A stretch of DNA of 64,000 bases from Anaerolineae bacterium. Its GTDB lineage: Bacteria > Chloroflexota > Anaerolineae > UBA1429. The notes beneath the pieces are model-generated. The model was not told where the DNA came from. It saw only the letters and a program-made list of their open reading frames with translations, and did not search any database. Location of the stretch: assembly GCA_963675785.1 (NCBI GenBank), contig OY776562.1, positions 1,824,001 through 1,888,000 on the forward strand. The letters are read 5' to 3'. The position numbers were made by a program, and so were the translations under genes. Below are positions 2,452 to 22,177 of this stretch, piece after piece; the stretch's first letter is position 1; each line of letters opens with the position of its first letter.

Positions 2452-3222
2452 ATGAGCATGCTAGACAAGTTTCGTCTGACTGGTAAAAAGATCATCGTAA
2501 CCGGCGGTGCCGGCGGCATTGGTGAAACCGTCATCTATGCCTTGGCAGAAGTAGGTGCAGAAATCGCTGTTATCGATCTTGATCCAAAAGGCATTGAGCG
2601 CGTCGTCAACAATTTGCAACAACGTGGAACGCGAGCCATGGGCTACAAGGCCGATTTGACGAGTCAAGACGAAGTGAAGGCTATGGTGGAGGCAGTCGTT
2701 TCAGAAATGGGCACAGTCGATGTGCTCTGGAATAACGCTGGTATCTTTCAGAATGTACCTGCAGAAGACATGAATTATGCCGAGTGGCTACGCATTATCG
2801 ACATCAATCTAAACACGGTATTTGCCGTATCGCAGGCCGTAGCCCCCATCATGATAGCCAACAAAAGGGGAACCATTATCAATACGGCGTCCATGTCAGG
2901 CCTGGTGGTGAATGTGCCCCAAAAGCAAGCGGGCTATAATACCGCCAAAGCAGGGATCATTCAGTTGACAAGAACACTGGCTACCGAATGGGCGCCATAC
3001 GGTATTCGCGTTAACAGCATCAGCCCCGGTTATATTGCCACCAACAAGGTCATCGGCGGGGATTATACCCATCTATTTGATTATTGGTTGGAAAGAACGC
3101 CCATGCACCGCATGGGATCCCCCGAGGAATTGGCTGGAGCTGTCATTTATCTGGCCAGTGATGCCTCAAGCTTTACGACTGGCGAAAATATCGTTATCGA
3201 TGGCGGGTATAGCATCGTGTAA
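2452..3222 (+). CDS. SDR-family oxidoreductase (sugar/polyol dehydrogenase-like)
   Basis: TGGAGGIG Rossmann motif, NNAG, YNTAK catalytic YxxxK, and PQKQ motif typical of polyol/sorbose reductases. RBS GGAG precedes ATG 2452. Confidence 0.9.
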   Translation: MSMLDKFRLTGKKIIVTGGAGGIGETVIYALAEVGAEIAVIDLDPKGIERVVNNLQQRGTRAMGYKADLTSQDEVKAMVEAVVSEMGTVDVLWNNAGIFQNVPAEDMNYAEWLRIIDINLNTVFAVSQAVAPIMIANKRGTIINTASMSGLVVNVPQKQAGYNTAKAGIIQLTRTLATEWAPYGIRVNSISPGYIATNKVIGGDYTHLFDYWLERTPMHRMGSPEELAGAVIYLASDASSFTTGENIVIDGGYSIV

Positions 3223-3274
3223 TATCATCCCACCTTCAATCTGCCCTGATCACTGAACAAGTTCTTCTTGTATA

Positions 3275-3318
3275 CAAAAGCACTCCATCAGCAGAATTCT
3301 GCTGACGGAGTGCTTTTG
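3275..3318. terminator. Intrinsic terminator
   Basis: AAAAGCACTCCATCAGCAG-aatt-CTGCTGACGGAGTGCTTTT. Confidence 0.85.
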
Positions 3319-3369
3319 TCTCTCGCTAGCCCTTACTCTTTCAATATCATTCGCAACGAGAATGGAGAG

Positions 3370-3630
3370 CAATTTTAGTACTGTTTACAGTTTTTATATT
3401 CTTATTTTATGTTTTTAATATCTTAAAATCACTTTATTCAAGTAAAAATACTAGTAAGATCATTCTGCAATTTTTATGTTAACTAATTATGTTAATAAAA
3501 TATCAATTTATGTTTAACTAGGATATTATGTCTAATAAATAATCATATCTATTTAACTATCGGTCTAAAATATTAGTAGATGTTAAGATAATTTTTACAT
3601 CTAGATATACTATTTTATTACTCTATTTAA
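3370..3630. promoter_or_regulatory. Very AT-rich non-coding block upstream of the archaellum operon
   Basis: Visibly far more AT-rich than the flanking genes, contains no ORF, and carries repeated TATGTT motifs. Confidence 0.5.
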
Positions 3631-3847
3631 CGCGCAGTTTATGCCCACTACCTGCATATAGCAGTATAAAAGAAGGGTATCCAGTGCACTTATCGCTCTG
3701 GAATTACAGGATTACCGAGTCTAGCTGATGTGTTCATCTCGCCAACACGATCACCCTTGACATCAGATAGACCAGGAGGAGGAGTGGTACGGAATGTACA
3801 AACAGTGGTGTCACAAAGCTTTTTCCAGAAGAGGAAAGGAACAGAAC

Positions 3848-4411
3848 ATGAACCGTCATTTGGAGTGTCGTAGAGACGACCGTGGTTTTACCGCACTGGA
3901 AACCGCCATTATTTTGATGGCTTTTGTGGTGGTCGCCTCGGTATTCGCTTTTACCATGCTATCGTCTGGCATGAGCTCTACTGAGCAGAGCAAGCAAGCT
4001 ATTGCAGCAGGTATGGAAGAAGTTTCCGGCAGTATGGAATTGCGCGGTAGCGTGATTGCAGCAGGCAGCGAAGATGCCGTAACTTCCGTCACTTTTTGCG
4101 TAGCTAATGCCGCAGGTGGAGACCCCATCGATCTTACGACCGGTGAGAACAACGTACTGGTTATCGACTATCGCACCACCGCAACCCGTACAGCCGACGT
4201 GGCCTGGACAGTAGCATGGCAGGGCAATAACGATGGCGATAGCCTTCTCGAAGATCGCGAACTGGCTGAGATCACCGTAGCCGTTCCTGCAGGATCCACA
4301 CTGAGCGCGAACACCGAGTTTGTGCTCGAAGTCCGACCTGAAAAAGGCGGCGTATTGGAAATTGAGCGAACCACTCCTGCCAAGATTGATGCAGTGATGG
4401 ACCTCGGGTAA
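3848..4411 (+). CDS. arlB: Archaellin (archaeal-type flagellin)
   Basis: Class III signal peptide RRDDRG/FTALETAIILMAFVVVASVFAF, archaellin motifs GGDPIDL and NNDGDSLLE, and C-terminal ERTTP...VMDL. Alternative in-frame start at 3794. Confidence 0.93.
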   Translation: MNRHLECRRDDRGFTALETAIILMAFVVVASVFAFTMLSSGMSSTEQSKQAIAAGMEEVSGSMELRGSVIAAGSEDAVTSVTFCVANAAGGDPIDLTTGENNVLVIDYRTTATRTADVAWTVAWQGNNDGDSLLEDRELAEITVAVPAGSTLSANTEFVLEVRPEKGGVLEIERTTPAKIDAVMDLG

Positions 4412-4476
4412 TTCGTCCACTCCTCCCTATGTCTCCGCCATTTGTGGCGAGTGGTGGGACACAGAGTTCACTCCTT

Positions 4477-4516
4477 GGTTTGAGCGGTTCACCTCCTTCG
4501 GTGGGCCGCTCAAACC
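4477..4516 (+). other. Strong intergenic hairpin without U-tract after arlB
   Basis: GGTTTGAGCGGTTCACC-tccttc-GGTGGGCCGCTCAAACC. Confidence 0.7.
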
Positions 4517-4535
4517 GCACCAAAAGGAAATCAAA

Positions 4536-5228
4536 ATGGCTGATCTCGAACAGCGCGTAAAACGTCTTGAAGGCGAACTTAGAATCCTGAAGAACCAAAT
4601 CCAGATGACTTTGCTGGATATTCAGGCTGAGTTGGCCGCCCATTATTATCCCGAATTGCGAACAGAGTTGGAGAGCATTCCCCAGGCTCCAAGAGCTGTT
4701 TCCGGGACGAAAGCCATAGATTCTAGAGCCAAGTCACAAGCCGCTTCTACACCATACGAAAATAACGATACACAAGAGCCCGATGATGCTGAACCAATAC
4801 TCTTGAAAAAAGTGTCTCTTGATCAAATCCATCAACAGCCTCCCAGACCACATGCTTCGCTCAAAGATGATCCGGATGAGCTGGAAATCGTTGATCAAAT
4901 GGTCGCTGTGGCCTATCCCGATCTGGATGATGCCGAACCTTTGCTGACAGAACGTGAGAACAATCTGTGCGCAGAGCCTCTCAATAATCCGATTATTCAA
5001 GCCAGTGTAATACGTTGGACTGGTGACACAGTCACTGTTCTTGGTAAAGAGCAAACGCGCAAGATCATTGAGCTTTGTATTCTGGATGGAAGAATAGATA
5101 AAAAATGGGCAGAGCGATTAAAGCGATTGCTTGATCTTGGCGCAGAGTACGAACCCGAAGAAACACCTTCATTTGATGCAGTACTCAATGCCATGGTTGA
5201 ACTGGTCGAGATTCTGGACGCCCACTAG
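4536..5228 (+). CDS. ArlC/D/E (FlaD/E)-like cytoplasmic archaellum accessory protein
   Basis: N-terminal coiled coil LEQRVKRLEGELRILKNQI..LLDI, acidic linker, and C-terminal W..D.V..LG.E..RKIIEL....G.I pattern resembling the FlaD/E domain. Lies between arlB and arlG. Confidence 0.65.
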   Translation: MADLEQRVKRLEGELRILKNQIQMTLLDIQAELAAHYYPELRTELESIPQAPRAVSGTKAIDSRAKSQAASTPYENNDTQEPDDAEPILLKKVSLDQIHQQPPRPHASLKDDPDELEIVDQMVAVAYPDLDDAEPLLTERENNLCAEPLNNPIIQASVIRWTGDTVTVLGKEQTRKIIELCILDGRIDKKWAERLKRLLDLGAEYEPEETPSFDAVLNAMVELVEILDAH

Positions 5229-5245
5229 AACAGCGGAGGCTATCG

Positions 5246-5758
5246 TTGGACCACCCTATTATTACGTCTCTCATGATCGTCGTAGCTGTGATTTGTGCAA
5301 TGCTTGTGTTCCAGGCAGTGTATCCTTCGGTGGTCCGCGGCTCCGATTCGGTAGTCTCGATGGAAAGACAGCTTTCTGAACGCCTCAAGACTGAAATAGC
5401 CATCATTCATGCTGCCTCAGAGCTTGATCCTGACGGCAATTGGCAAGATGTCAACCTGGATGGCGATTTTTCCAGCTTTATATGGGTCAAGAACCTTGGC
5501 GAAATTACCTTGAGCTCTGTTGAAAGCTGCGATGTTTTTTACGGTCCTGAAGGCAATTGGGCACGAGTTCCTTTTGAGGACGAAGCTGAAGGCGCTTATC
5601 CCTATTGGACATGGGAGCTGGAAAACGCCGAAACCTGGCAGCCAACGGCCACACTCAAGATAACCATTCATGATCTGTCGGTACCCGAATCGGGGCGGTA
5701 TCTTGCCAAAGTCACTACGCAAAATGGCATATCTGACGAGCTCTTGTTTGGGATGTAG
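5246..5758 (+). CDS. arlG: Archaellum protein ArlG (FlaG)
   Basis: N-terminal TM, then LSERLKTEIAII, WVKNLG, DVFYGPEG and W.P..TL.I motifs. TTG start with GGAGG RBS. Confidence 0.85.
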   Translation: MDHPIITSLMIVVAVICAMLVFQAVYPSVVRGSDSVVSMERQLSERLKTEIAIIHAASELDPDGNWQDVNLDGDFSSFIWVKNLGEITLSSVESCDVFYGPEGNWARVPFEDEAEGAYPYWTWELENAETWQPTATLKITIHDLSVPESGRYLAKVTTQNGISDELLFGM

Positions 5759-5760
5759 CC

Positions 5761-6282
5761 ATGGAAACGATTATCAGCTCGCTGATCATTCTTATGCTGG
5801 TGGTCTTTTCAGTGAGTAGTTATTCCAGCGCGATCGTAGAAAGCCAGCAACTCAATGCTGATGGCTGGCAAGCAGCACAAGCACGTGCAGCCGAGCAGAA
5901 TTCAACCAGCATCACCTTTGCGGGCCAAGATGCAGGAACAGATTACATTGACGCGACTCTGCTGAACGATGGTGATACTAGCCTGGCTAACATGGACGAG
6001 TGGGACATATTCATCTCGGCATATAACCAGGCAGGATCTCTTGTTGTGACGTGGCTGCCATATGAGCAAGCCGACACTTTGGGAAATTGGTGGCAAGATT
6101 CAGGGATATACATGGACGCCGCAGGAGGCAGTCCTGAAGTTTATGAACCAAAAGTATTCAATCCCGGTGAAGAGCTGGTCATACGCATTTGGTTGCCTGG
6201 CGGTTTGCAATCTGATTCAGCAGTAATGCTCAACATCGTAACCGACAGCGGGGCCCAGGCCCGCACTATATTCACACAGTAG
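5761..6282 (+). CDS. arlF: Archaellum protein ArlF (FlaF)
   Basis: N-terminal TM, LLNDGDTSL, FNPGEEL and IVTDSG motifs. Follows arlG. Confidence 0.8.
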   Translation: METIISSLIILMLVVFSVSSYSSAIVESQQLNADGWQAAQARAAEQNSTSITFAGQDAGTDYIDATLLNDGDTSLANMDEWDIFISAYNQAGSLVVTWLPYEQADTLGNWWQDSGIYMDAAGGSPEVYEPKVFNPGEELVIRIWLPGGLQSDSAVMLNIVTDSGAQARTIFTQ

Positions 6283-6289
6283 GGTAAAA

Positions 6290-6664
6290 ATGAAACAGAA
6301 TCATCCTTGCATTGTGCTTGTGGATGACGACCAGTGCCTGACCAGCATCCTGGAACTGGTTATGGCCAAAGAGGGCTACGACTTGGTCGTCGTTCATGAC
6401 GGCATTAATGGCCTCAAGAAAATCCGCGAATCCCATCCGGATCTGGCTATTCTGGATGCCATGCTGCCCGGACTGGACGGCCGGGATCTCTGCAGAATGC
6501 TGAAAGGTGATCCGAAGACAGCCAACATCCCGCTCATCATGTTCTCTTGTCTCATGGATCTCGATACTGTTGAGAACGATCTGCCAGCGGATGCTTTTAT
6601 CACCAAACCAGCTCCAGTTACACATCTCCTTGAAACGATTCGAGACAGCTTAGCGAGGGTTTGA
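6290..6664 (+). CDS. Single-domain CheY-like response regulator
   Basis: VDDD, phospho-acceptor ILD.MLPGLDG, FS and FITKP; no output domain. Confidence 0.92.
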   Translation: MKQNHPCIVLVDDDQCLTSILELVMAKEGYDLVVVHDGINGLKKIRESHPDLAILDAMLPGLDGRDLCRMLKGDPKTANIPLIMFSCLMDLDTVENDLPADAFITKPAPVTHLLETIRDSLARV

Positions 6665-6665
6665 C

Positions 6666-7730
6666 GTGCCCGCTCACATTCTGGTTATCGACAGCGATAA
6701 ACAAGCATTGACTGAAAGCATACGCCTGCTCCAGGGCTGTGACTTTGAGGTCACTTCTGCATCGGATTCACAGGTGGGCCTGGCTATGGTATCCACAAGC
6801 GAACCAGATCTGATCATGGTAGATGCGCTGTTGGAAGATCAGGGCTGCGAAGAGATAACACGGATGCTGCGGCTAGACCCAAAGACGCGAGACATTCCCA
6901 TCATTGCCACTATCCCAGCAGAACGCCTCAGCGATCTGATGATCGGCACCGATAGCTATTGGGATGAGTGGCTGCTCAAGCCGTTTACGCGAGAAGATGT
7001 GACTCTCAAGATTGAGCAGCTCATCAAGCCAAGCAGTCATTCGCGCAGAAATGGCGTCGTCTCTACAGGCAGCCACGAGCTGGACAGCAAAATGGGCGGC
7101 GGCATTCCCCTGGGATCCCTTACATTGATCGAAGGAACTTCAGGCGCAGGCAAGTCTGTTTTGGCCCAACAACTCATGTGGGGATCTCTCAAAGGAGGCT
7201 TTCGCCTGTCATCGTTTACTACCGAGAACGGCGTCAAAAGCCTAGTACAGCAAATGCGCAGCCTCAGTCTGGATATCACAGATTTCGTGCTGCTGCGCCG
7301 TCTGCGCATCATCCCCGTTGAAGTATCTGGCTTGGGGAAAAATGCCCCTACTGCCTTACTGGGAGCAATGAGATCTGAAACTGGGACCGACATTATCGTT
7401 GTAGATTCCCTAACGGCGCTTATCAACGGGTGCACCGACCCGCAGGTGCTTGGTTTTTTTGAAGGAGCCAAACGCATCTGTGCAAACGGCACAACAGTCT
7501 TGATCGTTCTGCACTCTTATGGTGTTACACAAGACCTGCTAACACGTCTCAGATCCCTATGTGATGCTCACTTACGCTTGAGCACAGAAGAAATGGGCCA
7601 AAAGCTGGTTCACATGCTCGAAGTAACCAAAGTTCGCGGCGCAGATCGCACCACGGGCAATATCGTCAGCTTTGATGTAGAGCCTGGATGGGGCATGCGC
7701 CTCATTCCTGTTAATAAAGTCAAGGGATAG
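6666..7730 (+). CDS. arlH: Receiver (REC) domain fused to ArlH (FlaH) KaiC/RecA-like ATP-binding protein
   Basis: aa 1-120 are REC (ILVID, DLIMVD, LLKPF). aa ~130-354 are FlaH (STGSHELDSKMGGGIP.GSL.LIEG.SGAGKS, IIVVDSLT, LEVTKVRG, F.VEPGWG). Confidence 0.9.
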   Translation: MPAHILVIDSDKQALTESIRLLQGCDFEVTSASDSQVGLAMVSTSEPDLIMVDALLEDQGCEEITRMLRLDPKTRDIPIIATIPAERLSDLMIGTDSYWDEWLLKPFTREDVTLKIEQLIKPSSHSRRNGVVSTGSHELDSKMGGGIPLGSLTLIEGTSGAGKSVLAQQLMWGSLKGGFRLSSFTTENGVKSLVQQMRSLSLDITDFVLLRRLRIIPVEVSGLGKNAPTALLGAMRSETGTDIIVVDSLTALINGCTDPQVLGFFEGAKRICANGTTVLIVLHSYGVTQDLLTRLRSLCDAHLRLSTEEMGQKLVHMLEVTKVRGADRTTGNIVSFDVEPGWGMRLIPVNKVKG

Positions 7731-7733
7731 TTA

Positions 7734-9413
7734 ATGGCTGGACGCGATTTACCCTTTTTGCATGTTATGACCAATCAAGGCTCACCACTTGTTCAAATCG
7801 CGGGCATGAGCCCGGAGCTTGAAGAGCAAATAGCCCTGCATCCTTTTCTGGGCGACTATTTATCCCAGGTGCCTATAGAGGAGATCGGGGTACCTGAATA
7901 CTATGAGCAGGTTAGTCGTTCTCTGGGGAAAACGTCCTATCACAATTTCATCTACCCCACTGATGATGGATTATTCGTACACATTTATCCGAATCCTCTG
8001 GGAGGACGCGATTATTGGGTTCCTATAGAACCAGACCTGACACTTGATCTGACAGGGGTTACTGAAGATCTGGAAGCGTTATTGGTGGATTATGCCGAAG
8101 ATATTGGCATGGCCGAAGACCCGGATGAAAAGAAAGCCCTGCTTTTGCAGGCTGTTGATGAGATATGCACGCTGAATCCTACCGAAGCTGAATACCGCTT
8201 GTTGGTAACAGAGCGAGAGCTTGAAGGTCTCAAATATCACGTCGTACGTGACAAGATTGGTTTGGGAACTCTGCAACCCCTCATCTCTGACCCATATATT
8301 GAAGATATTAGCTGCAGCGGCATTGGTCCGGTGTTTGTAGAACACAAGGTCTTTAAGAGCCTACAGTCGTCCATTACCTTTGAAACGATGGATGAACTCG
8401 ACGACTTTGTAGTGTGGTTGGGAGAGTGCATCAAACGGCCCGTTACTGTGCGTAACCCCATTGTGGACGCTGTACTGCCAGACGGCTCTCGTATCAATAT
8501 CGTGTATGGACGTGAGATTGCTACACGAGGCAGTAACTTTACCATCAGAAAATTCTCGGATACGCCGATCAGCATTCTGGAATTGATCGACTTTGGCACG
8601 CTCAACTATGACATGGCCGCCTACCTCTCGCTCATTCTGGAGGAAGGTTTGAACATGTTTGTCGTCGGCGCTACGGCCTCTGGCAAAACCACTACGCTCA
8701 ACGCGCTGACCACATTCATTCTGCCTGATGCCAAAGTCGTCACCATCGAAGATACGCCCGAAGTCAAAATCCCACATGGAAACTGGTGCCGAGAAGTTAC
8801 GCGAGCATCGGGCAATGGCGATACAAAAGCCGCTGGCGTCGATATGTTCGAATTGCTCAGAGCAGCCCTACGACAACGCCCCGACCGTATCATCGTCGGC
8901 GAGATCCGTGGCGCAGAAGGGGCAACCGCCTTTCAGGCCATGCAGACTGGCCACGGTGTCATGGCAACCTTTCACGCCTCATCAGTCATCAAACTGGTAC
9001 AGCGTTTGACGGGTAGCCCCATCAATATTCCCAAAACATATATGGATAACCTGCATGTAGCCCTTATTCAGAGCGCAGTGCGAGGACCAGACGGCCGTAT
9101 GGCCAGGCGCGTAACAAGCATCAACGAGATCCTGGGGTACGATCCGGTCTCTGAAAGTTTTTCGTTCATTGAGGTTTTCCGCTGGAACTCGGCCAACGAT
9201 ACATTCGAGTTTCCCGGGAACATGAACAGCTTTTTACTTGAGGATGTCATTGCCCTCAAGCGCGGCTTGCCGCCCAACCGCCGTAAAGAAATCTATGACG
9301 AGATTCGCAAACGAGCGAGGATTTTCAGACGCCTTCACGAAGATAGAGGTATAAGTTCCTTTGACGACTTTTTCCGTGTCCTCTCAGAAGCACACCGACA
9401 AGGTCTCCTCTGA
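7734..9413 (+). CDS. arlI: Archaellum motor ATPase ArlI (FlaI)
   Basis: DPYIEDISCSG, Walker A GATASGKTT, Asp box TIEDTPE, Walker B IIVGEIRG and His box QTGHGVMATFHA. Confidence 0.95.
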   Translation: MAGRDLPFLHVMTNQGSPLVQIAGMSPELEEQIALHPFLGDYLSQVPIEEIGVPEYYEQVSRSLGKTSYHNFIYPTDDGLFVHIYPNPLGGRDYWVPIEPDLTLDLTGVTEDLEALLVDYAEDIGMAEDPDEKKALLLQAVDEICTLNPTEAEYRLLVTERELEGLKYHVVRDKIGLGTLQPLISDPYIEDISCSGIGPVFVEHKVFKSLQSSITFETMDELDDFVVWLGECIKRPVTVRNPIVDAVLPDGSRINIVYGREIATRGSNFTIRKFSDTPISILELIDFGTLNYDMAAYLSLILEEGLNMFVVGATASGKTTTLNALTTFILPDAKVVTIEDTPEVKIPHGNWCREVTRASGNGDTKAAGVDMFELLRAALRQRPDRIIVGEIRGAEGATAFQAMQTGHGVMATFHASSVIKLVQRLTGSPINIPKTYMDNLHVALIQSAVRGPDGRMARRVTSINEILGYDPVSESFSFIEVFRWNSANDTFEFPGNMNSFLLEDVIALKRGLPPNRRKEIYDEIRKRARIFRRLHEDRGISSFDDFFRVLSEAHRQGLL

Positions 9414-10887
9414 AGCAGAGGAGATACATGCGGCACAAAACGAGAGCTACTCTGCTTTTCAGTTCTACTACCAGCTGATTTACATGTCGGCTGTCGCAGC
9501 GGCGGGGCTTTCGCGCAACCAGGTGTTTGACCTGGGAGCCAAGCTTAATTGTGTGGTAGCACCCTATTTTGCCGACGTTCAAACCCTGGTAAGTAGTCTG
9601 CATTATGACTACCCACGGGCCTGCCGTGTGGTAGGTGGCCGCTGCAAAGAGACTGACGTTGCCAGTTTTTTGCTGCGCCTTTCCGATGCACTAGAAGCTG
9701 GGGAGAGCCTTCCGGGATTTCTAACTCACGAGGCTGGAGTGCAACGCAATGTTTATGTGAACGAATATGAGCGCAATCTGGATTCGATGCGAAAATGGAC
9801 CGACGCTTATGCATCGCTCATCGTTTCCATGGCGTTGATTGTGATCATCAATCTCGTTTCAACCATGATCTACGATATGGGCAATACTTTGATGATGCTC
9901 TTTGTAGGTACAGCCTGCCTGTTCAGTGCAGGCGGCGCCTGGGTAGTTACCCGTTCAACACCGCGAGAAAGACTAGCTCTTTGTGAAGGCCCCGGCTCGG
10001 AGGAACAGCAACGTATTCGACAAATGGGCACGATCGCACTTCCCATAGCGCTGGTAGGCTCGCTGATACTGGGGTTAATTCATGCTGGATGGGGTTGGGT
10101 AATGATTTTTACAGCATTGGTAACAGCTGTACCCGGCCTATTGGCATGGCAGTCAGAATCCCGCCGCATCCGCAAAGAAAAAGAATTCTCAGCCTTTATG
10201 CGATCGCTGGGAAGCATGGCCAGCTCCACAGGAACCACAGTCTCTGAAGCTCTGACACGCATGGATCTCAACTCGTTTCCAACACTGGCTCCTGACGTGC
10301 TTAGGCTATCGAGTCGTTTGAAGGCACGTATTGCGCCCCAGGTATGCTGGAATCATCTTGTTCAGGAGACAGGAAGCCAGCTCATCAATTATGGTGTGCG
10401 CGTATTTGTCGATGCGGTGATTCTGGGCGGGGACCCAAAAGAAACCAGTACACTCTGTTCGCAATTCATCTCGCAGACAACCATGCTTCGTGAAAAACGT
10501 GCTGCTATTTCTTCTTCGTTTAGCGGTTTGGCCATCATCATGCATGCCATTTTGGCAGTTTTACTGCTGCTCATTTTAAACATCGTGCTCAGTTTCAGAA
10601 GTCTTGTTTCCAGTTACATGGATGAGAATCTGTCAGCAGACATGATCAGCTCTATCAACATCCCTTTGATGAGCTTTGACGGCTCTCAGCTTGCTCTGGT
10701 ATCCACACTGACCATCGGAATGACGCTTTTTCTGGTGTTTGTCGATGCAGGTGCGCTTATTGGGACGGATGGCGGATTCAAGCCCAAAGCACTCGCCTAC
10801 TATGCTGTGGTCGCTGCATTAACAGGTATATGTTTCTTTGTTATTCCGCCAATGATTCAGTCCGTCATGTTGCAGGCAATTGCCTAG
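9361..10887 (+). CDS. arlJ: Archaellum membrane platform protein ArlJ (FlaJ)
   Basis: YMSAVAAAGLSR, YERNLDSMRKWTDAY.SL, multiple TMs and two T2SSF-like domains. Start uncertain (TTG 9361 or GTG 9376, both overlapping arlI). Confidence 0.9.
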   Translation: MTTFSVSSQKHTDKVSSEAEEIHAAQNESYSAFQFYYQLIYMSAVAAAGLSRNQVFDLGAKLNCVVAPYFADVQTLVSSLHYDYPRACRVVGGRCKETDVASFLLRLSDALEAGESLPGFLTHEAGVQRNVYVNEYERNLDSMRKWTDAYASLIVSMALIVIINLVSTMIYDMGNTLMMLFVGTACLFSAGGAWVVTRSTPRERLALCEGPGSEEQQRIRQMGTIALPIALVGSLILGLIHAGWGWVMIFTALVTAVPGLLAWQSESRRIRKEKEFSAFMRSLGSMASSTGTTVSEALTRMDLNSFPTLAPDVLRLSSRLKARIAPQVCWNHLVQETGSQLINYGVRVFVDAVILGGDPKETSTLCSQFISQTTMLREKRAAISSSFSGLAIIMHAILAVLLLLILNIVLSFRSLVSSYMDENLSADMISSINIPLMSFDGSQLALVSTLTIGMTLFLVFVDAGALIGTDGGFKPKALAYYAVVAALTGICFFVIPPMIQSVMLQAIA

Positions 10888-10895
10888 GGGGCACA

Positions 10896-12014
10896 ATGAT
10901 CATTCAGTCTCTCAAAAAGCAATGGTTCATCATACTGCTCGGCTTGATCCTTACACTGATTCCAACACGTATCGCGTTGGGGCAGACACCCAATCACGAA
11001 TCAGCACTAGTAAGTGGTGATACACTTGAAGTGCTTACAGATGTGGTACAGGCTTATCAGACCGACGGTGATTTGCTTGAGGCCATGCGTTCGCTGGATA
11101 CCTGGGACACGGATGTGCTCCTTGTAGCCATTGGAGCACTTGAAAATGACGAGTCTGATGCCAAGCTTGCCGAAACAGCAGCCACTCTGCATAAAGAGCT
11201 TTTGCTTCCGGACGATACAATCCAGATTGGCGATCTCTTGAAAAAAACACCAATCACTCTGGTTCTGGCTCTATCTATTGGGCTCCTTGCCGTCGGAAGC
11301 ATACTGCTCATGCTGCCACAAAAGGTCGTATCACATGCGGTATTACATGCTGATGCCTTTACTCAGAGGGTCAGCGAAGCCAGAACCGATCTTAAGACTG
11401 CTGCCAACAATCCTCAAAATGACTCTGAAGATAACCTCGATGACCTAATCGGCAGCATTGCAGAGATAGGCGAAAGCGTAGATAATGACAAAGGTTTGCT
11501 CTCTGAAACGGCCAGTGGTTCAATCAAACCTGAAAGCGAGAACCAAGAACCCACTGAAAATGAGGCCGACGAAAGCAGCTCCCGTGCTGTAACCACTGTC
11601 AAGCTTGATGCTGAGCAAGCCCCACACGTTGTCCAAGCGGACAAAGTGGGTAAGACGGAACAGACCAGTGAGATCAAGCCCTCGGCGACGCCGGAAACTG
11701 TGCCCGCGACTCCATCTCAACAGCTCCAGAGCCAGGATTCGGGGGCAGCCGACGCTGCTGCAAGTGCAGGGAGCAGCCAACAGGGGATCGCTAGCAGTAC
11801 AAGTGCACCCGAAGTAGCTCCCCAGGAGCCTTCTGCAAAAGACAATGTTGCAGCGTTGCTCGAGGACGTATTCTCGGATGATGAACAAGGGTCAGAAGAT
11901 CTCAAGATACTCGATGAAGGATTGGAAGACATCGAGATGACCCAGATGATCAAGACTATGCTCGAACTTAGCCGGCGACTAAGAGAACTCAACAGAGCAG
12001 AGCAATCTGTTTGA
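10896..12014 (+). CDS. Unknown membrane protein of the archaellum operon (signal peptide, small external domain, TM, long acidic low-complexity tail)
   Basis: Hydrophobic N-terminus ending IALG/Q, a second TM ITLVLALSIGLLAVGSILLML, a D/E/S/T-rich tail and an amphipathic C-terminal helix. Starts 8 nt after arlJ. Confidence 0.7.
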   Translation: MIIQSLKKQWFIILLGLILTLIPTRIALGQTPNHESALVSGDTLEVLTDVVQAYQTDGDLLEAMRSLDTWDTDVLLVAIGALENDESDAKLAETAATLHKELLLPDDTIQIGDLLKKTPITLVLALSIGLLAVGSILLMLPQKVVSHAVLHADAFTQRVSEARTDLKTAANNPQNDSEDNLDDLIGSIAEIGESVDNDKGLLSETASGSIKPESENQEPTENEADESSSRAVTTVKLDAEQAPHVVQADKVGKTEQTSEIKPSATPETVPATPSQQLQSQDSGAADAAASAGSSQQGIASSTSAPEVAPQEPSAKDNVAALLEDVFSDDEQGSEDLKILDEGLEDIEMTQMIKTMLELSRRLRELNRAEQSV

Positions 12015-12024
12015 TAGGAGCCAC

Positions 12025-13611
12025 ATGCCAGCCAGAAGTGGTAGCGGCCAACCCCAGATTAAGAATTCACCCACGCGATCGAAAAAAGAGCGCGCGGGTC
12101 TCTTGTTGATTCTGGCCGGGCTTGTTGTGCTGGCATTGCCGTTCTACCTTGTTTACAATACATTATCGGGGCGTGAACAAGAAGCAGCCATAGAGATTGA
12201 GACACTGGCAACAGCTTTGAACGCTACTGCCACACCCGATTCGCAAATAGAAACCCTTGAGGCTCAGCTGGAAGTTGCACAAGCAAATCGTGATGCTCTC
12301 ATTACAATTACCAATGAGCTGAATGCGCAAACGGATGCCTGGCCGGAAATTCTGAACGCCCTGGCCAATTATGATGCGACGCAGCTGCGCCTTGAGGAAA
12401 TCAGTCAATCCGAATCGCAAATCGTTCTACAGGGCTCTGCCGTAAATGATCAAGTTGTTATGGACTATACCCAGAACCTGCAAGACTCGTCTTGTTTTGA
12501 GCGTGTGGTCATACAATCGATACAGGTTGTAGAAAAAGCTTTCGTCCAAGAAGCTGCCTCGACGGCTACACCGGCAGTAGTTAACAGATCTACCGCAACA
12601 AGTACACCCGTGGCCACAACCACAACCACCGCCACTGTCCTCCCTGAGGGCGATGCCTACGAGCAAGATGATACGACGCCTAATGATATTTATCCCGATA
12701 AAGCCCAAGAGCATACGTTTTATCCACCTTATGACGTCGACCTTGTGCAATTCCTGGCAAAATCAGGACGTTATTACCGCGTCTATACAACCGATCTGGA
12801 ACCCGGCGTAGATACCAGTCTCACCATTACGCTGGGAGATCAGATTTATGTCAATGATGACCGCAGCAACGGAGATCTGAGCTCAGAGCTCGTCATTGCT
12901 GTCCCAGCGGGTACGGATGTGGAAGCGCTCGTCCAGATAACGAACAGAGGACAGTACGGGACTACCCAAAGCTATGTCATCGTCGTCGAAGAGATTTTGG
13001 CGAGCACCAGCACGCCCACACCAGAGACGACAGCGACACCGCAGGCCACAGCCACTCCGGCCAGCGCTGCCACAGCGCGACCAACTTATGGACTCGAAGA
13101 TGTGTATGAGCCAGATGATTATGATGCCGCTGAATTGGTCGTTGGGCAATCACAAATTCGCACTTTTTCACCGGAAAAAGACATCGATCAGGTTGTATTC
13201 CAGGCGCTTCCCTCTCACCGTTATGAGATAGCAACATCCTGGTTATATCCGGATGTAGATACCAGCCTGGTTGTATATGTTGGTGAAGTAGCATACACAA
13301 ACGACGACTGCAGCAATGGGGAAGCTAGATCCTGCATCACCATAGATATACCGGCAGGAGAAACCACTCTTGTTACAGTAAAAGTCACCAACAACGGCAC
13401 ATTTGGCCCTGGGCAGCTTTACACACTGGGTGTGACAGATATGGGCATCTATAACACATCGATGAACAATCGCGAAGCACGCAAGTCCGATGTCGAGCAA
13501 GTGCACTTTGTGCAAACAGCTACATCCGCGTCGCACAAGCTCAAACCAGCCAGTGAAACCACCACGTCAGTGCAATTCTCCATTTTGCTCATTATTGAGG
13601 AATCCGAGTGA
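12025..13611 (+). CDS. PilN-domain protein with two tandem beta-rich repeat domains
   Basis: TM plus coiled coil, then WPEILNAL...LRLEEISQ...IVLQGSA....VMDY..NL..S..F..V (PilN pattern), T/P-rich linkers and two D.YE.DD...DVD/DID...VDTSL repeats. Confidence 0.75.
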   Translation: MPARSGSGQPQIKNSPTRSKKERAGLLLILAGLVVLALPFYLVYNTLSGREQEAAIEIETLATALNATATPDSQIETLEAQLEVAQANRDALITITNELNAQTDAWPEILNALANYDATQLRLEEISQSESQIVLQGSAVNDQVVMDYTQNLQDSSCFERVVIQSIQVVEKAFVQEAASTATPAVVNRSTATSTPVATTTTTATVLPEGDAYEQDDTTPNDIYPDKAQEHTFYPPYDVDLVQFLAKSGRYYRVYTTDLEPGVDTSLTITLGDQIYVNDDRSNGDLSSELVIAVPAGTDVEALVQITNRGQYGTTQSYVIVVEEILASTSTPTPETTATPQATATPASAATARPTYGLEDVYEPDDYDAAELVVGQSQIRTFSPEKDIDQVVFQALPSHRYEIATSWLYPDVDTSLVVYVGEVAYTNDDCSNGEARSCITIDIPAGETTLVTVKVTNNGTFGPGQLYTLGVTDMGIYNTSMNNREARKSDVEQVHFVQTATSASHKLKPASETTTSVQFSILLIIEESE

Positions 13612-14519
13612 AGCGCAAGAAACGCTGGATAGACACCATTCCGTGGGCCAATATACGCTACAGTCTGCCCACCATGGCCATAGCCTTGTTGGCTATGGGC
13701 TATCTTATAGCTGCCATGATGATTCTTTTGCCGCAATGGCAATCAGTCAATAGTTTGATTGCGGAGATCAATCAGGATCGCGATGAACTCTTGAGCATTC
13801 GCCGTAATGCGCTCGAGTTGCCGGGCAAATTGGATGACGAAATCTCTGCAGCCAAGGCACAACTGGATACATTGCGCCAAAGCCTGATGGACCGAGACAC
13901 CGCTGCTGCTCTTCTCGACCAGCTTTATGTGATCTCTTTGGGGAACGATGCTCAAATCGTTGATCTGCAAAGCCAGCCATCGCCTGAAGTAAATAAAGAA
14001 GCCATGTATGACATCAGCAGTTTCAAGGTCAATGTACAGGGCAACGTCAAAGACATTCTGGCGTTCTTGAGGCAAGTTGAGGCTATCAGTGCTGGCACCG
14101 CGACACAGATCGGCGAATTTGAAATAGCCTCTACGGATGAAACCGATCTATCGCTGCTCTCATTTACCATGACGCTCTATACACGCACCGATCAGACAGA
14201 GATGACACCTTTGGTATCAAATGTATCAGAAGATACCGAACAGGATACGGAAGACACAGAGCTTTTGGAGAAACCAGAGGATTGGCCATCCGATTGGTCC
14301 TGGCCACCCAGCTCTCCGCTTTTGGATGACCAAACCGAGACAACGTCGATAGCAATCCCTCAAAGCTATATCAGCCACACCATCGCTGAGGGAGAGACCT
14401 TGTTGGGTATCGCCCTACAATACGGCGTATCTGCCGAGGTGATTTCACAACTGAACGGGCTCGACGTCCGTGCATTTGTCATTGGGGATACCCTACAGAT
14501 CCCTGTCTACGCCCAATAG
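13608..14519 (+). CDS. PilO-like protein with C-terminal LysM domain
   Basis: TM plus coiled coil, then F.V.VQG....ILAFL..VE (PilO/GspM pattern). C-terminal HTIAEGETLLGIALQYGVS...I..LNGL......GDTL.IP is a LysM domain. GTGA overlap with the upstream gene. Confidence 0.78.
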   Translation: MKRKKRWIDTIPWANIRYSLPTMAIALLAMGYLIAAMMILLPQWQSVNSLIAEINQDRDELLSIRRNALELPGKLDDEISAAKAQLDTLRQSLMDRDTAAALLDQLYVISLGNDAQIVDLQSQPSPEVNKEAMYDISSFKVNVQGNVKDILAFLRQVEAISAGTATQIGEFEIASTDETDLSLLSFTMTLYTRTDQTEMTPLVSNVSEDTEQDTEDTELLEKPEDWPSDWSWPPSSPLLDDQTETTSIAIPQSYISHTIAEGETLLGIALQYGVSAEVISQLNGLDVRAFVIGDTLQIPVYAQ

Positions 14520-14639
14520 ACCTCAGCATTACTTGCCCACTCTCACCCTCTATATAGCACTTGCTCACAGTTGCCTTTTCGTGCATAGTGCTGATGTTAT
14601 GCTTTACGGTCCCATATGTACGAATATTTGGAGGATGAT

Positions 14640-15824
14640 ATGAAAAACTTTGATTTCATTTCGCCAACCAGGATTATTTTCGGTAAGGGCGTTGAAAAGC
14701 AGACCGGCGAGATCACAGCCCAATATACTGATAAAGTGTTGCTCGTGTATGGCGGCGGCTCTGTGAAAAAGTACGGCCTGTATGACACAGTTGTAAATGG
14801 GTTGAATAAAGCGGGCGTCGAGTATTTCGAATTAGCCGGTGTCGAACCTAATCCGCGCCTCTCTCTAGTCCATAAGGGTATCGATATCTGCCGCAAAGAA
14901 GGTATCGGCTTTATTCTGGCCGTTGGTGGAGGCAGCGTTATCGATACATCCAAAGCCATTGCTGCAGGCGTACTGTATGATGGTGATGTGTGGGACTTTT
15001 TCATCCCTCGGCAGATCATGCCCAAGGCGCTTCCAGTTGGTGTCGTGCTGACCATTCCCGCTGCTGGTAGTGAAGCCAGTGATAGTGTAGTGATCACCAA
15101 GGTAGACGAGGACGGTTGGCGCAAGATGGGTTCGGGTGGAGATGCCGTACGACCGGTGTTCGCCATCATGAACCCCGAACTCACTTATACGCTACCACCC
15201 TACCAGACAGCAGCCGGAGCCACAGACATGTTCCTCCATGTGCTCGAACGATATTTCACCAACCCCAAGAATGTTGAATTGACCGATCGTCTGTGCGAGT
15301 CAATCATGAAGACCGTCGTCAACAATGCGGGCAAGGTCCTGGCCAATCCCACCGATTACGACGCTCGGGCCGAAATCATGTGGTGCGGCACACTAGCCCA
15401 CAACGGCCTAGTAGGTACCGGCCGCGAGCCAGATTTCGCTTCTCATGGGATCGAACATGAACTCTCGGCGCTGTACGATGTGACTCATGGTGCAGGATTG
15501 GCAGTTATTTGCCCGGCCTGGATGAAGTACGTGTACAAACACGACATTCCACGTTTCGCTCAATTTGCCAACAGGGTTTTTGACATTGAAATCGACCCAT
15601 TTGACCTAGAAACTACGGCCCTCAAAGGCATTGCAGCGTTTGAGGGTTGGCTGCGCTCTATCGGGATGCCCACTACTGCCGAAGAGCTGGGCGTTGACGA
15701 ATCCAAATTTGAATACATGGCCTCTTGTGCAACTGCGAACGATACTCGCAAAGTGGGGAATTTCGTCCCTCTTGATAAGAATGGTGTGTTCTCCATATTT
15801 ATGTTAACGCGTGCCAACGGGTAA
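14640..15824 (+). CDS. Iron-containing alcohol dehydrogenase (BdhA/YqhD-like)
   Basis: GGGSV, VEPNP, AVGGGSVID, TIPAAGSE and His ligands H.IEH...THGAGL. Confidence 0.93.
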   Translation: MKNFDFISPTRIIFGKGVEKQTGEITAQYTDKVLLVYGGGSVKKYGLYDTVVNGLNKAGVEYFELAGVEPNPRLSLVHKGIDICRKEGIGFILAVGGGSVIDTSKAIAAGVLYDGDVWDFFIPRQIMPKALPVGVVLTIPAAGSEASDSVVITKVDEDGWRKMGSGGDAVRPVFAIMNPELTYTLPPYQTAAGATDMFLHVLERYFTNPKNVELTDRLCESIMKTVVNNAGKVLANPTDYDARAEIMWCGTLAHNGLVGTGREPDFASHGIEHELSALYDVTHGAGLAVICPAWMKYVYKHDIPRFAQFANRVFDIEIDPFDLETTALKGIAAFEGWLRSIGMPTTAEELGVDESKFEYMASCATANDTRKVGNFVPLDKNGVFSIFMLTRANG

Positions 15825-20600: not shown

Positions 20601-21211
20601 CCAGCTTGATAGCACCTCCCCATGACCCCGCTCTCATCCACCAAACCGATCCAAGCATTTTGATAGCCTCGCGTCTCAACCAGCATATGGCATGCGGTCT
20701 CTAGGAGACTGTCCCCATCCTTTTCGTGGGTAATCAGCTGGTTCACATTACGGATGGCAGAGAGTACCCGATTCAGATGATCCAGACGTTTTGCAGAATC
20801 AGAAAGCGCCGCCGTACGTTCGGCAACTTGAGCCTCCAAAGTGCGGTTTATCTGTCTGACTGCTTGCGCATTGCGCGCATTTTCGATATAGAGCGCAGCC
20901 AGGTTAGCCGTGTTTCCGACAAAAGCATCATAAGGATCAAAGGCCGTTTCGTCGGCCACACAAAGATCTATGGAACCATACTGTCGCTCACTGGTCGAGA
21001 GTAGGTAGCGAAAGCGGCGGCCATTTAAAGAGTTGGCAAGGTCTGCATCACCTTGAATAAAGACTTTACAACCAGCCACACCAGGCAGTTCCTCAAGCGC
21101 GTGCACCATCATTTCGCAGAGTCGCTCTTCGTCGGGGGCAACATTCAACGTACTCTGCAATAGCAAGATACGCCCCAAAACGCCAGGATCTAGAGAGCTC
21201 GGTCCACTCAC
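17633..21211 (-). CDS. Hybrid sensor histidine kinase (GAF, 4 PAS/PAC, HisKA, HATPase, REC)
   Basis: H-box LAGGVAHDFNNML, N-box NLCVNARDA, G boxes DNGNGM, FFTTK.PGKGTGLGL, and C-terminal REC (LLITDVVMP). Confidence 0.95.
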   Translation of the reverse strand: MSGPSSLDPGVLGRILLLQSTLNVAPDEERLCEMMVHALEELPGVAGCKVFIQGDADLANSLNGRRFRYLLSTSERQYGSIDLCVADETAFDPYDAFVGNTANLAALYIENARNAQAVRQINRTLEAQVAERTAALSDSAKRLDHLNRVLSAIRNVNQLITHEKDGDSLLETACHMLVETRGYQNAWIGLVDESGVMGRCYQAGFDSEFDAVIELLNQGIAPECARECLQAGGVHVILDPVSQCSPCPLAAHYEGRARQATLATRIEHGDHLFGWLSVSVPQAVAQDVEEQSLLTEAASDIAFALWSIETEAQRELTERKYRDILASTSDAVVAMDLNGIITLFNAGAEKLYGYSAQSALGMAISQFCPEDRLIEQKKLIQGVIENGFVQGFETERITADGRRIPVEMTISLLKDSQGQPIGTSAIIRDISERKRAEESLRESEQRLKEAERLSHLGSWSRDIATGKSSWSDEFFRICGLEPGSLEPAAELAFAIIHPDDRAQAIEAVNRAIETGIPYDIEIRIVLPDGSVRWLHSIGRLDYDEQGAPLRLVGSFLDITEQHYVDAALRESEERFRALVESAPMSILVVRDGKYVYANPQSVNLMGFDRAEQFIGMDVFETISPELQPVRRQSLTRVNETSDSSPTELQFLRSDGSPVWVITSSVDVQMDGEPTTIIVGQDVTDRRKAEEKHELLMMAIEQAAETILITDTDGIIQYVNPTFEKITGYSRQEALGQNPRILHSGVQSSAFYSEMWDTLLRGETWQGQLVNQKKDGTLYTEDAVISPVRDAAGRTVNYVAVKRDITAELKLEEQLRQSQKMEAVGRLAGGVAHDFNNMLSVILGYAEMALDVLDPSQPLYADLLEIEGAAQRSAELTQQLLAFARRQTVSPQVLDLNETVSGMLKMLGRLIGEDVDLVWNPAAELWPIEMDPTQINQVLANLCVNARDAIVGVGRITIESHNVVFDADSCTGIEECIPGDYIQLCVSDNGNGMDEQTRSKIFEPFFTTKEPGKGTGLGLSTVYGIVRQNKGFVNVYSEIGLGTTFKIYLPRYIGKLEASLSAVSDKSDVGGHETILLVEDEPTILNLTRLMLEKLGYCVLTAETPGKAIALAENHSGEIHLLITDVVMPEMNGRDLARDLLKLYPEMKRLFMSGYTADVIAHQGVLDRGVGFLHKPFNREQLGRKVRQALKKN

Positions 21212-21864: not shown

Positions 21865-22177
21865 CTGAGTCCTCCTTGCATAGCCAGGTAGTCCCACCCA
21901 TTATAAGGGACGTGAACTCGCTCACATTCTTAGCGAATTCACCAGAACTGGCCCCTATTGCGGCCTTGGCCAGAATTTCCTCCGGACCATCATTGGCAAC
22001 TGCACCGCGGTCCAACGCCATCAAAATGAGCGGTTGTCGCGTTCGTGAGAGTAGAATGATGGGTGTTGGAAATTACACGCTGCAATTATGTTAATCATAA
22101 CATATACGATGCGCCTTTGCATAGATATTTTTCAGGGTGTGAGACACACCAACCCGCAGAGGCGATCCGGCAAAGAT

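Follow-up and report, generated by a model that had tools for sequence, protein, structure and literature searches.

How does a signal reach the motor of a bacterial archaellum in the absence of CheF? This route is left open in papers on bacterial archaella. In the archaeal system, as set out in the available text of PMC7534055, CheF mediates the action of phosphorylated CheY (CheY-P) and ArlCDE dock on ArlH; CheF is reported to be absent from Chloroflexota in the accessible part of PMC12488501. The stretch analyzed here (the window, 64,000 nucleotides of contig OY776562.1 from an Anaerolineae bacterium) holds a compact archaellum cluster in the order arlB-X-arlG-arlF-REC-(REC-ArlH)-arlI-arlJ-pilN-pilO, in which one receiver (REC) gene stands alone and a second receiver-like domain is fused to ArlH (Table 1). 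The arlG-arlF order is that of the arl2 cluster type in the available text of PMC12488501, which also gives the pairing of PilO with LysM in Litorilinea aerophila and arlCDE homologues in most Chloroflexota. No Pfam family was found for the coiled-coil protein X230 at E<=0.01. Its homologues sit between arlB and arlG in the loci of relatives, and an archaeal counterpart (L055:3990-4934) gave a sub-threshold match to Arch_fla_DE (E 0.024); we regard X230 as a candidate ArlCDE-like switch component. The 394-aa protein inside the cluster has a homologue in the equivalent place of locus L011. A promoter and terminator scan over positions 3200-15000 gave counts no higher than in shuffles.

Table 1. 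Coordinates of the archaellum cluster and of the nearest histidine kinase in the window.
Feature	Positions	Strand	Evidence or remark
arlB, archaellin	3794..4411	+	Pfam Arch_flagellin 2.2e-26; archaellin N-terminal domain TIGR02537
X230, 230-aa coiled-coil protein, arlC/D/E position	4536..5228	+	candidate ArlCDE-like switch component
arlG-like stator protein	5246..5758	+	NCBIfam ArlG 1.6e-6, under cut-off
arlF-like stator protein	5761..6282	+	NCBIfam ArlF 4.2e-4, under cut-off
REC1, stand-alone canonical receiver, 124 aa, CheY-like	6290..6664	+	Response_reg 2.4e-17
Receiver-like domain of REC-ArlH, residues 1-121	6666..7028	+	Response_reg 33.0 bits; (beta/alpha)5 in AF2 model
Interdomain linker of REC-ArlH, residues 122-130	7029..7055	+	pLDDT <50 at 122-129
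ArlH (FlaH) domain, residues 131-354, and stop codon	7056..7730	+	FlaH PRK06067, 4yds, Foldseek
arlI, motor ATPase	7734..9413	+	NCBIfam archaellum motor ATPase FlaI 627.1 bits, cut-off 550
arlJ, membrane platform	9361..10887	+	NCBIfam ArlJ/FlaJ 8.3e-103; T2SSF
394-aa protein inside cluster	10830..12014	+	Pfam and NCBIfam: no family at E<=0.01
PilN-like protein	12025..13611	+	Pfam PilN 2.6e-7
PilO-like protein, C-terminal LysM domain	13608..14519	+	PilO 1.7e-5; LysM 1.5e-7
Hybrid GAF-PAS-HisKA-HATPase-REC kinase, 1192 aa	17633..21211	-	Pfam; nearest histidine kinase, candidate input only

The fused protein, the sole ArlH of a genome assembled as a single 3.22-Mb contig, is encoded by one 354-aa open reading frame with a GTG start (6666-7730, + strand). 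A sequence-only reading of this DNA had described the frame as a receiver joined by a short linker to a full ArlH and placed 1 nt past a single-domain receiver gene. The placement is read directly in the sequence (6290-6664, then 6666-7730): the junction consists of TGA, one base and GTG, with a Shine-Dalgarno-like GAGGG 6 nt upstream of the GTG, and arlI starts 4 nt past the stop codon of the fusion, followed by arlJ. The frame comprises a receiver, a linker of about 9 residues and a complete ArlH. Residues 5-116 exceeded the Pfam Response_reg cut-off of 30.2 with 33.0 bits, residues 132-331 matched a KaiC-type ATPase in Pfam (2.8e-18), and residues 125-353 passed the cut-off of 194 for NCBIfam FlaH (PRK06067) with 246.5 bits; the score for the narrower ArlH equivalog NF052589 (193.4 bits) fell short of its cut-off of 215. 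In the AF2 model (pLDDT 83.6), residues 4-120 fold as a (beta/alpha)5 receiver of five strands and five helices, residues 122-129 make up a linker of low confidence, and the ArlH fold starts near residue 131; the mutual placement of the two domains is uncertain at a pTM of 0.62. The best Foldseek matches were the FlaH crystal structures 4wia_A (5e-20) and 4yds (7e-20), with target-normalized TM scores of 0.83-0.88, and the protein could be aligned to 4yds at 1.9e-27. K163 of Walker A, the catalytic Glu E187, and D247-S248 of Walker B align with K33, E57 and D122 of SaArlH, and they are invariant in a 24-row alignment (A2).

A fused frame could also be an artefact, in which two genes are joined through a lost stop codon or frameshift in assembly or annotation. 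We give this explanation next to no probability and dropped it. PF00072 and PF06745 occur together in each of the 120 best-matching protein clusters, which are 333-375 aa long and 51-100% identical, come from several independent sources and all have a single frame; the same fused frame was present in 24 species-level loci from independent, named Chloroflexota assemblies, with arlI next in each, and the window genome itself is one contig. ArlH matches were found in 81 of 151 sampled archaeal genomes. All 86 archaeal matches listed begin at query residue 117 or later, and therefore none of these matches includes a REC part, in agreement with the earlier statement that characterized archaeal ArlH proteins are single-domain. 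None of the papers found in text searches describes the REC-ArlH fusion; the domain may be annotated in supplementary files such as the source data of PMC12488501.

Proteins with the same domain order, a REC followed by a single KaiC-like domain, also occur outside archaellum clusters. They form a separate, fully supported clade (clade B, SH-aLRT 100), and differ from REC-ArlH in their canonical receiver, longer linker and length of 355-490 aa; in the ArlH-like part they share 26-41% identity with the window protein. An arl neighbor was seen in none of their 18 fused metagenome loci, 6 of which had flanks of at least 2 kb, and the neighbors included REC-HisKA-HATPase kinases and an OmpR-type regulator. 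These long-linker proteins were ruled out as further archaellum fusions.

Gene order in relatives bears on the signal. There, the fused gene directly follows genes for CheA, CheB, Hpt-bearing hybrid kinases and a single-domain REC, an order that points to a two-component route to the motor. A hybrid kinase was located upstream in 13 of the 24 fused loci (12 REC-HisKA-HATPase-REC-Hpt proteins and one PAS kinase) and CheA and CheB orthologues in 7, within the same gene string; CheA-REC hybrids were also among the input genes. A link of both two-component and chemosensory signaling with the motor is well supported by this arrangement. In the window genome (single contig, 94.8% complete), zero matches were obtained for CheF, the CheA dimerization domain, CheW, MCP and Hpt; the result for CheF is in line with the CheF-independent setting that the earlier reading had supposed. 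No kinase, Hpt or Che gene adjoins the window cluster, the closest kinase being about 7 kb away on the opposite strand. This kinase is the joint best match in its own genome (4.9e-101) to the archaellum-adjacent kinase of locus L013, nearly tied with a paralogue located elsewhere, and it is no more than a candidate input to the cluster.

We also examined phylogenies of both parts of the protein. In the ArlH tree, 26 fused rows fell in one clade of 29 rows, nested within a Chloroflexota clade (SH-aLRT 99) whose sister groups are unfused. In the REC tree, 24 of 25 fused RECs formed one group (SH-aLRT 93), sister to the N-terminal REC of the Hpt-bearing kinases (SH-aLRT 89); many forks of this tree are unresolved because it rests on 130 columns and a quick search. 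Fused and stand-alone RECs fell in separate groups on this small alignment, and an origin of the fused REC by tandem duplication of REC1 is unsupported. The Litorilinea “CheY” groups with the stand-alone REC family and was ruled out as a split-off fused REC.

Which of the two receivers would take the phosphoryl group was assessed from their catalytic positions, using the best 120 clusters for family counts of the fused REC and 25 copies for species-level counts. The window copy has the residues named in the sequence-only reading, i.e., D9-S10-D11, D53, T82 and K105-P106. Across the family, judged by its residues, the fused REC is degenerate. Among 120 family members, 92 retain the acceptor Asp at the end of beta3 (D53), as do 16 of 25 species-level copies. 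It was missing from the remaining 28 clusters and 9 copies, including those of L017 and L026, both behind CheA-CheB. The position of CheY T87, at the end of beta4 (T82 in the window copy), was Thr in 10 of 120 and Ile or Leu in 99. The acidic pair after beta1, which we take to be D12 and D13 of CheY, is incomplete, the second, Mg-binding position being Ser (S10) in the window copy and Asp in only 7 of 120. Other positions were better preserved: D11 in 101, K105 (at the end of beta5) in 113 and P106 in all 120. Compared with the window copy, the REC part had a median identity of 32.5% and the ArlH part one of 66.5% (n = 118). Of the earlier proposal that phosphorylation acts directly on the motor, the two-component route stands by gene order, and the fused REC as the phosphorylated element is not supported as proposed, given the counts for the Asp, the Thr and the Mg-binding Asp. 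The window copy, which keeps D53, T82 and K105, may be phosphorylated; such D53 phosphorylation may be an extra in this copy, outside the mechanism conserved in the family.

These data can be read differently, with the fused REC as terminal phospho-acceptor, phosphorylation of D53 altering ArlH oligomerization or ArlI binding, and REC1 as a parallel output or phosphate sink. The catalytic residues retained in the window copy, the Hpt-bearing kinases that adjoin the gene in 12 of 24 relatives and the sister relationship to the N-terminal REC of such kinases are consistent with this idea, as is the conservation of D53 and D11 in spite of a poorly conserved domain; the retention of the acceptor Asp in 77% of members, in a domain otherwise only about 33% conserved, speaks for a role of phosphorylation at the fused REC in most lineages. 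However, the Mg-binding and switch positions have been replaced in most of the family, the Asp is gone even in two loci behind CheA-CheB, and in 21 of 24 loci the adjoining upstream gene encodes a fully canonical receiver. We consider a terminal-acceptor role for the fused REC rather unlikely.

This upstream receiver was not seen in three fused loci (L022, L030 and L033). In the window, REC1 (124 aa) matched Pfam Response_reg at 2.4e-17 (63.5 bits), and all five catalytic positions are present (D12, D13, D56, S86 and K106-P107). The syntenic stand-alone family had D56 and T/S86 in 23 of 23 members, D12 and D13 in 22 of 23 each, and K106 in all 11 rows covering the position; D56, K106 and P107 were invariant in a 22-row alignment (A4). 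By its residues, the stand-alone REC is fully canonical. The window REC1 was placed on a long branch outside the syntenic family in the REC tree. Its orthology rests on position rather than sequence, because a profile of the family made without the window copy ranked it 6th among the 37 receivers of the genome. The name CheY is also not justified for it, since the genome gave no match to the CheA dimerization domain, CheW or MCP.

We propose, with a little less than even confidence, a division of labor in which the stand-alone REC accepts the phosphoryl group and the ArlH-borne REC serves as its dock on the motor and passes the signal on. REC1, as its conserved residues suggest, would be the true acceptor and a CheY-like output, fed in relatives either by Che proteins or by a phosphorelay from a hybrid kinase through Hpt. 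Phosphorylated REC1 would then dock on the ArlH-borne REC through a REC-REC contact, which would bring the signal straight onto the ArlH ring beneath ArlI. According to the available text of bioRxiv 10.1101/2021.03.19.436134, ArlH binds ATP, autophosphorylates and binds ArlI, the latter as a hexamer and in a manner modulated by ArlH phosphorylation. By analogy with this biochemistry, docking might alter ArlH oligomerization or the contact between ArlH and ArlI, and so change motor assembly, speed or direction. REC1 and REC-ArlH would in this way stand in for the archaeal chain that leads from CheY-P through CheF and ArlCDE to ArlH. Several observations count against this proposal, among them the long branch of the window REC1 and its modest rank in the family profile, the lack of a kinase, Hpt or Che gene beside the window cluster, the three fused loci with no upstream REC seen, the unfused ArlH beside a stand-alone REC in Litorilinea-type loci, and the frequent retention of the acceptor Asp in the fused domain.

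A predicted complex of REC1 with REC-ArlH scored 0.54, while the best of three controls scored 0.00; the runs shared at least 82% of contacts and partner pLDDT was at least 82. Of 80 solved complexes, 58 passed the score mark used, as did 2 of 110 mismatched pairs, and passing scores of 0.60 or under comprised 7 of the 80 solved complexes and both mismatched pairs. The prediction lends weak support to binding between the two proteins. Its pass may reflect memory of known structures, because REC-REC dimers have already been solved.

In view of its degenerate catalytic positions, the fused REC might instead have a structural function independent of any signal, as an atypical receiver comparable to the one in TadZ/CpaE, with REC1 acting elsewhere. 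Its role could be in ArlH oligomerization, in polar placement, or in anchoring to the bacterial envelope or the PilN-PilO scaffold. TadZ/CpaE combines an atypical receiver with a P-loop ATPase. In Tad pili, a degenerate receiver is likewise fused to an accessory nucleotide-binding protein of a type IV filament machine (bioRxiv 10.64898/2026.07.08.737194); the ATPase is of the ParA/MinD type and belongs to another machine, whereas that of REC-ArlH is of the RecA/KaiC type, and homology of the two fusions is not claimed. A structural role would also fit the report, in the available text of bioRxiv 10.1101/2021.03.19.436134, that ArlH alone is monomeric and its hexamer needs ArlI, as well as the zero matches to a Che system and Hpt in the window genome. 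On the other hand, the tight and repeated association of the gene with those for REC1, kinases and Che proteins, the retention of K105-P106, D11 and most D53 residues, and the assembly of the same cluster by unfused sister lineages without the fused domain all argue against it. A purely structural function appears improbable to us.

Like archaeal ArlH/FlaH (S. acidocaldarius 4YDS and M. jannaschii 4WIA), the window protein has a single RecA/KaiC-like domain and is encoded directly upstream of arlI-arlJ, but it is extended at the N-terminus by about 121 residues that form a receiver-like domain, and its host is a bacterium. In the euryarchaeal CheY-P/CheF/ArlCDE/ArlH output, according to the available text of PMC7534055, a receiver also finally acts on the ArlH face. 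The window cluster has a gene in the ArlCDE position (4536-5228); in contrast to the euryarchaeal output, its genome has no CheF match and the receiver fold is covalently joined to ArlH. Another described cluster, that of Litorilinea aerophila (PMC12488501), is of the same type, with pilN and pilO-LysM, and likewise has a single-domain REC between arlF and arlH, the “cheY homologue” FKZ61_RS14870, a designation disputed in PMC13747009. In Litorilinea-type loci (L032 and L039) a stand-alone REC, which in Litorilinea sp. L039 groups with the stand-alone family found upstream of fused genes, lies beside an unfused ArlH (234 aa in L039), whereas in the window the stand-alone REC is accompanied by REC-ArlH. 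REC1 must therefore be able to function on its own, without the fused domain.

According to PMC13747009, the response regulator of the L. aerophila cluster should not be called CheY without syntenic evidence. The pair of REC and REC-ArlH is a concrete candidate for the signal route, and the CheA, CheB and Hpt kinases of relatives supply the missing synteny. A REC-ArlH beside a CheY-like receiver suggests a possible wiring of the bacteria's own signaling into a borrowed archaeal-type motor. It is possible, though doubtful enough that we offer it as a tentative idea, that REC1 and REC-ArlH are the missing CheF-independent coupling device, the receiver having been fused after Chloroflexota gained the motor without CheF; a bacterial CheY-like protein fed by a Che system or a hybrid kinase-Hpt relay could, on the same tentative footing, then attach straight to the motor and act as its switch or brake. 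The question of the signal route is now testable with a few proteins, and the answer would show how bacteria rewired a horizontally acquired archaeal machine. If it exists, the tentative coupling device would be a new, independently evolved way of coupling chemosensing to a rotary motor.

We found that the product of REC-ArlH, a gene in which a receiver-like domain (the fused REC) precedes ArlH, passed the thresholds for both parts. Residues 5–116 matched Pfam Response_reg (33.0 bits, cut-off 30.2) and residues 125–353 NCBIfam FlaH (246.5 bits, cut-off 194); the score for the narrower NCBIfam ArlH equivalog, 193.4 bits, was under its cut-off of 215. An AF2 model built from a 24-row alignment (pLDDT 83.6, pTM 0.62) predicted a (beta/alpha)5 receiver at residues 4–120, a disordered linker at 122–129 and then a RecA-like domain, whose best structural matches were the FlaH crystal structures 4wia and 4yds (target-normalised TM 0.83–0.88). 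In the alignment with 4yds, K163 corresponds to K33 of SaArlH, E187 (with T185-T186) to E57 (T55-T56) and D247-S248 to D122; ATP binding, autophosphorylation and motility were reported to depend on these residues (bioRxiv 10.1101/2021.03.19.436134).

The fusion is genuine and not an artefact. All of the best 120 of 2129 protein clusters (E≤1e-5) were 333–375 aa long and carried both Pfam families, and REC was followed by an ArlH-like domain in 55 of the best 150 representatives (50% identity). A scan of relatives with one genome per species confirmed 164, of which the best 80 were kept, and revealed by ORF and profile analysis a fused ORF of 351–373 aa in 24 loci (L009–L031 and L033), labelled Anaerolineae, Ardenticatenaceae, Ca. 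Trichofilum, Ca. Aquidulcis and similar. The remaining ArlH loci of the scan were unfused (Dehalococcoidia, Caldilineaceae, Anaerolineaceae, Chloroflexia and 10 archaeal loci), the proportions being biased because the scan patterns were derived from the fused family. When the window's phylum was sampled evenly with 401 genomes (six flagged unpublished, none among the cited rows), a full-length fused match was present, among the matches listed, in the window's genome only; ArlH-only matches were listed in six genomes, a broken match in one, and one genome was matched at profile positions 1–207, with 1345 weaker matches beyond those listed. An ArlH match occurred in 81 of 151 genomes sampled from an archaeal phylum, and of the 86 matches listed not one started before query residue 117. 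Besides, a complete arl cluster with unfused ArlH was observed in an assembly labelled cyanobacterial (L053, uncultured Pleurocapsa sp.); it groups with Chloroflexota copies, so mis-binning is possible.

In the window, REC-ArlH belongs to a tight gene string on the plus strand, flanked by bacterial genes (for example those for trigger factor, a Wzz-like protein and an SDR), and its named close homologues are all from Chloroflexota. One base lies between the stop codon (TGA) of REC1, the stand-alone receiver gene, and GTG, the start codon of REC-ArlH, and a GAGGG motif precedes this GTG by 6 nt. The last two genes of the string encode components of bacterial type IV pilus alignment, joined to an archaeal motor, as was reported for L. 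aerophila. REC-ArlH is the sole ArlH of this genome (a single 3.22-Mb contig, 94.8% complete), where nine other matches span the REC part only.

Genes of the archaellum string in the window
Feature	Position	Strand	Remark
arlB	3794-4411	+	
Coiled-coil protein, 230 aa	4536-5228	+	at arlCDE position
arlG-like	5246-5758	+	
arlF-like	5761-6282	+	
REC1	6290-6664	+	stand-alone receiver, 124 aa
REC-ArlH	6666-7730	+	354 aa
arlI	7734-9413	+	627 bits, cut-off 550
arlJ	9361-10887	+	
Acidic protein, 394 aa	within 10830-14519	+	after arlJ; family unassigned
PilN-like, 528 aa	within 10830-14519	+	long Thr/Ala-rich and repeated C-terminal regions
PilO-LysM protein	within 10830-14519	+	

In the relatives, arlI was downstream of the fused gene in all 24 loci, with an extra unfused arlH between them in L012 and L013. 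In these two Chloroflexota loci (both 5980–7791), a 355-aa REC-ArlH is followed by a 245-aa ArlH and then arlI. The tree places the two ArlH domains in sister groups, so the second copy looks like a product of tandem duplication, and rings of mixed ArlH types are conceivable.

Two kinds of REC and KaiC-like fusion were distinguished. On the ArlH-domain tree (192 rows, LG+G4, quick search), the window's ArlH fell among 29 rows, 26 of which are fused, that form a clade nested in a 49-row Chloroflexota clade (SH-aLRT 99) whose other branches were unfused; two small groups of fused rows (P0122/L033 and P0123/P0164) lay apart. Proteins with a long linker and a canonical receiver formed a separate clade (57 rows, 43 fused, SH-aLRT 100). 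This family is large (P0128–P0266 at L089–L109; 355–490 aa; a single KaiC-like domain), and ESM Atlas clusters of this type, a lead only, were listed for Chloroflexota, Margulisiibacteriota and Acidobacteriota. Next to its genes lie REC-HisKA-HATPase kinases and an OmpR-type regulator, and an arl neighbor was found in none of 18 fused metagenome cases (6 with at least 2 kb of flank), which marks these proteins as paralogous REC-KaiC-like signaling proteins and not motor parts.

A small stand-alone REC lay directly upstream in 21 of the 24 fused loci (exceptions L022, L030 and L033), and L014 had three in tandem (5055–6408). A hybrid histidine kinase preceded it in 13 loci (12 REC-HisKA-HATPase-REC-Hpt; a PAS kinase in L013), and seven (L015, L016, L017, L020, L023, L026 and L031) had orthologues of a CheA-CheW-REC hybrid and CheB further upstream in the same string, neighbors being assigned by Pfam in L016, L013, L017, L019 and L029 only and by phmmer bit scores elsewhere. 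In the window's genome, searches for CheF, CheW, the dimerisation domain of CheA, MCPsignal, Hpt and Arch_fla_DE gave no match, and no orthologue of CheA or CheB was found. HATPase_c had 37 matches there. The kinase nearest to the cluster, a GAF-PAS-HisKA-HATPase-REC hybrid (17633–21211, minus strand), adjoins a MEDS-domain gene and is one of the joint best matches to L013's kinase. This 1192-aa protein has several PAS domains and is apparently translationally coupled to the 229-aa MEDS-domain protein (17633–21897, minus strand). Several paralogous PAS hybrid kinases are present in the genome, yet no Hpt domain was matched.

The sequence-only reading had proposed that phosphorylation may act directly on the motor through the fused REC. 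The residues of the window's copy permit phosphorylation of D53, and it speaks for this reading that the Asp is retained in 77% of 120 close family members (92; Gly 11, Ser 9, Ala 7, Asn 1) and in 16 of 25 species-level fused RECs. Position 9 is Glu/Asp in 117, position 11 Asp in 101, position 105 Lys in 113 and position 106 Pro in all. However, at position 10, equivalent to the Mg-binding Asp of CheY, only 7 members have Asp (Ser 58, Asn 18, Gly 11, Pro 11, Ala 8), and the switch Thr at position 82 is found in 10, with Ile/Leu in 99. The acceptor Asp is also absent from the fused RECs of L017 and L026, though both lie behind CheA-CheB. Direct phosphorylation of D53 is the main rival explanation, and a rather unlikely one. 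Median identity to the window's copy was 32.5% for the REC part versus 66.5% for the ArlH part (n=118). The fused REC may instead be structural and signal-independent, by analogy with the atypical receiver domain of TadZ (bioRxiv 10.64898/2026.07.08.737194), which we consider quite improbable.

Members of the stand-alone REC family have canonical residues throughout (D12 22/23, D13 22/23, D56 23/23, T/S86 23/23), with D56, K106 and P107 invariant over 22 rows. Most syntenic members have a ~16–20-residue insertion between beta4 and beta5, absent from REC1 and Litorilinea-type copies. On a weakly resolved REC tree (130 columns), 24 of 25 fused RECs formed one group (SH-aLRT 93; that of L033 lay apart), sister to the N-terminal REC of adjacent kinases (SH-aLRT 89), and stand-alone RECs, including Litorilinea sp. 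and CFX7 copies, formed another (SH-aLRT 94). REC1 was a long, unplaced branch and ranked 6th of 37 receivers in its genome by the stand-alone-family profile; its orthology thus rests on gene position.

Our preferred, still tentative, explanation is that REC1 would take the phosphoryl group and the receiver-like domain on ArlH would be the motor-borne module on which REC1 docks and which passes the signal on, with output via the hexamer of ArlH and its interface with ArlI. Such a route may functionally substitute for the chain CheY-P, CheF, ArlCDE, ArlH (PMC7534055). A predicted complex of REC-ArlH and REC1 weakly supports contact: it scored 0.54 (best of 3 controls 0.00), with at least 82% contact agreement between runs and partner pLDDT of at least 82. 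Of 80 solved complexes, 58 reach the mark used, as do 2 of 110 mismatched pairs; at scores ≤0.60 only 7 of those 80 reach it, along with both mismatches. Solved REC-REC dimers exist, so the score may mirror likeness to those structures alone.

Full-text literature searches turned up no account of a fusion between a receiver and ArlH/FlaH; supplements or source data may show the domain. In public databases, these sequences are named "response regulator", "ATPase domain-containing protein" or "flagellar protein FlaH". The available text of PMC12488501 describes a homologue of cheY within the L. aerophila cluster, states that CheF is absent and suggests that a component as yet unknown connects signaling with the motor; its main text contains none of the words "receiver", "fusion" or "response regulator", and its supplements may annotate the domain. 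PMC13747009 disputes the CheY label, synteny being lacking, and leaves ArlH unmentioned; the available text of PMC13705601 names ArlH once, in an unrelated context. REC-ArlH, with its putative function, is a specific candidate answer, open to testing, to a question not yet settled.
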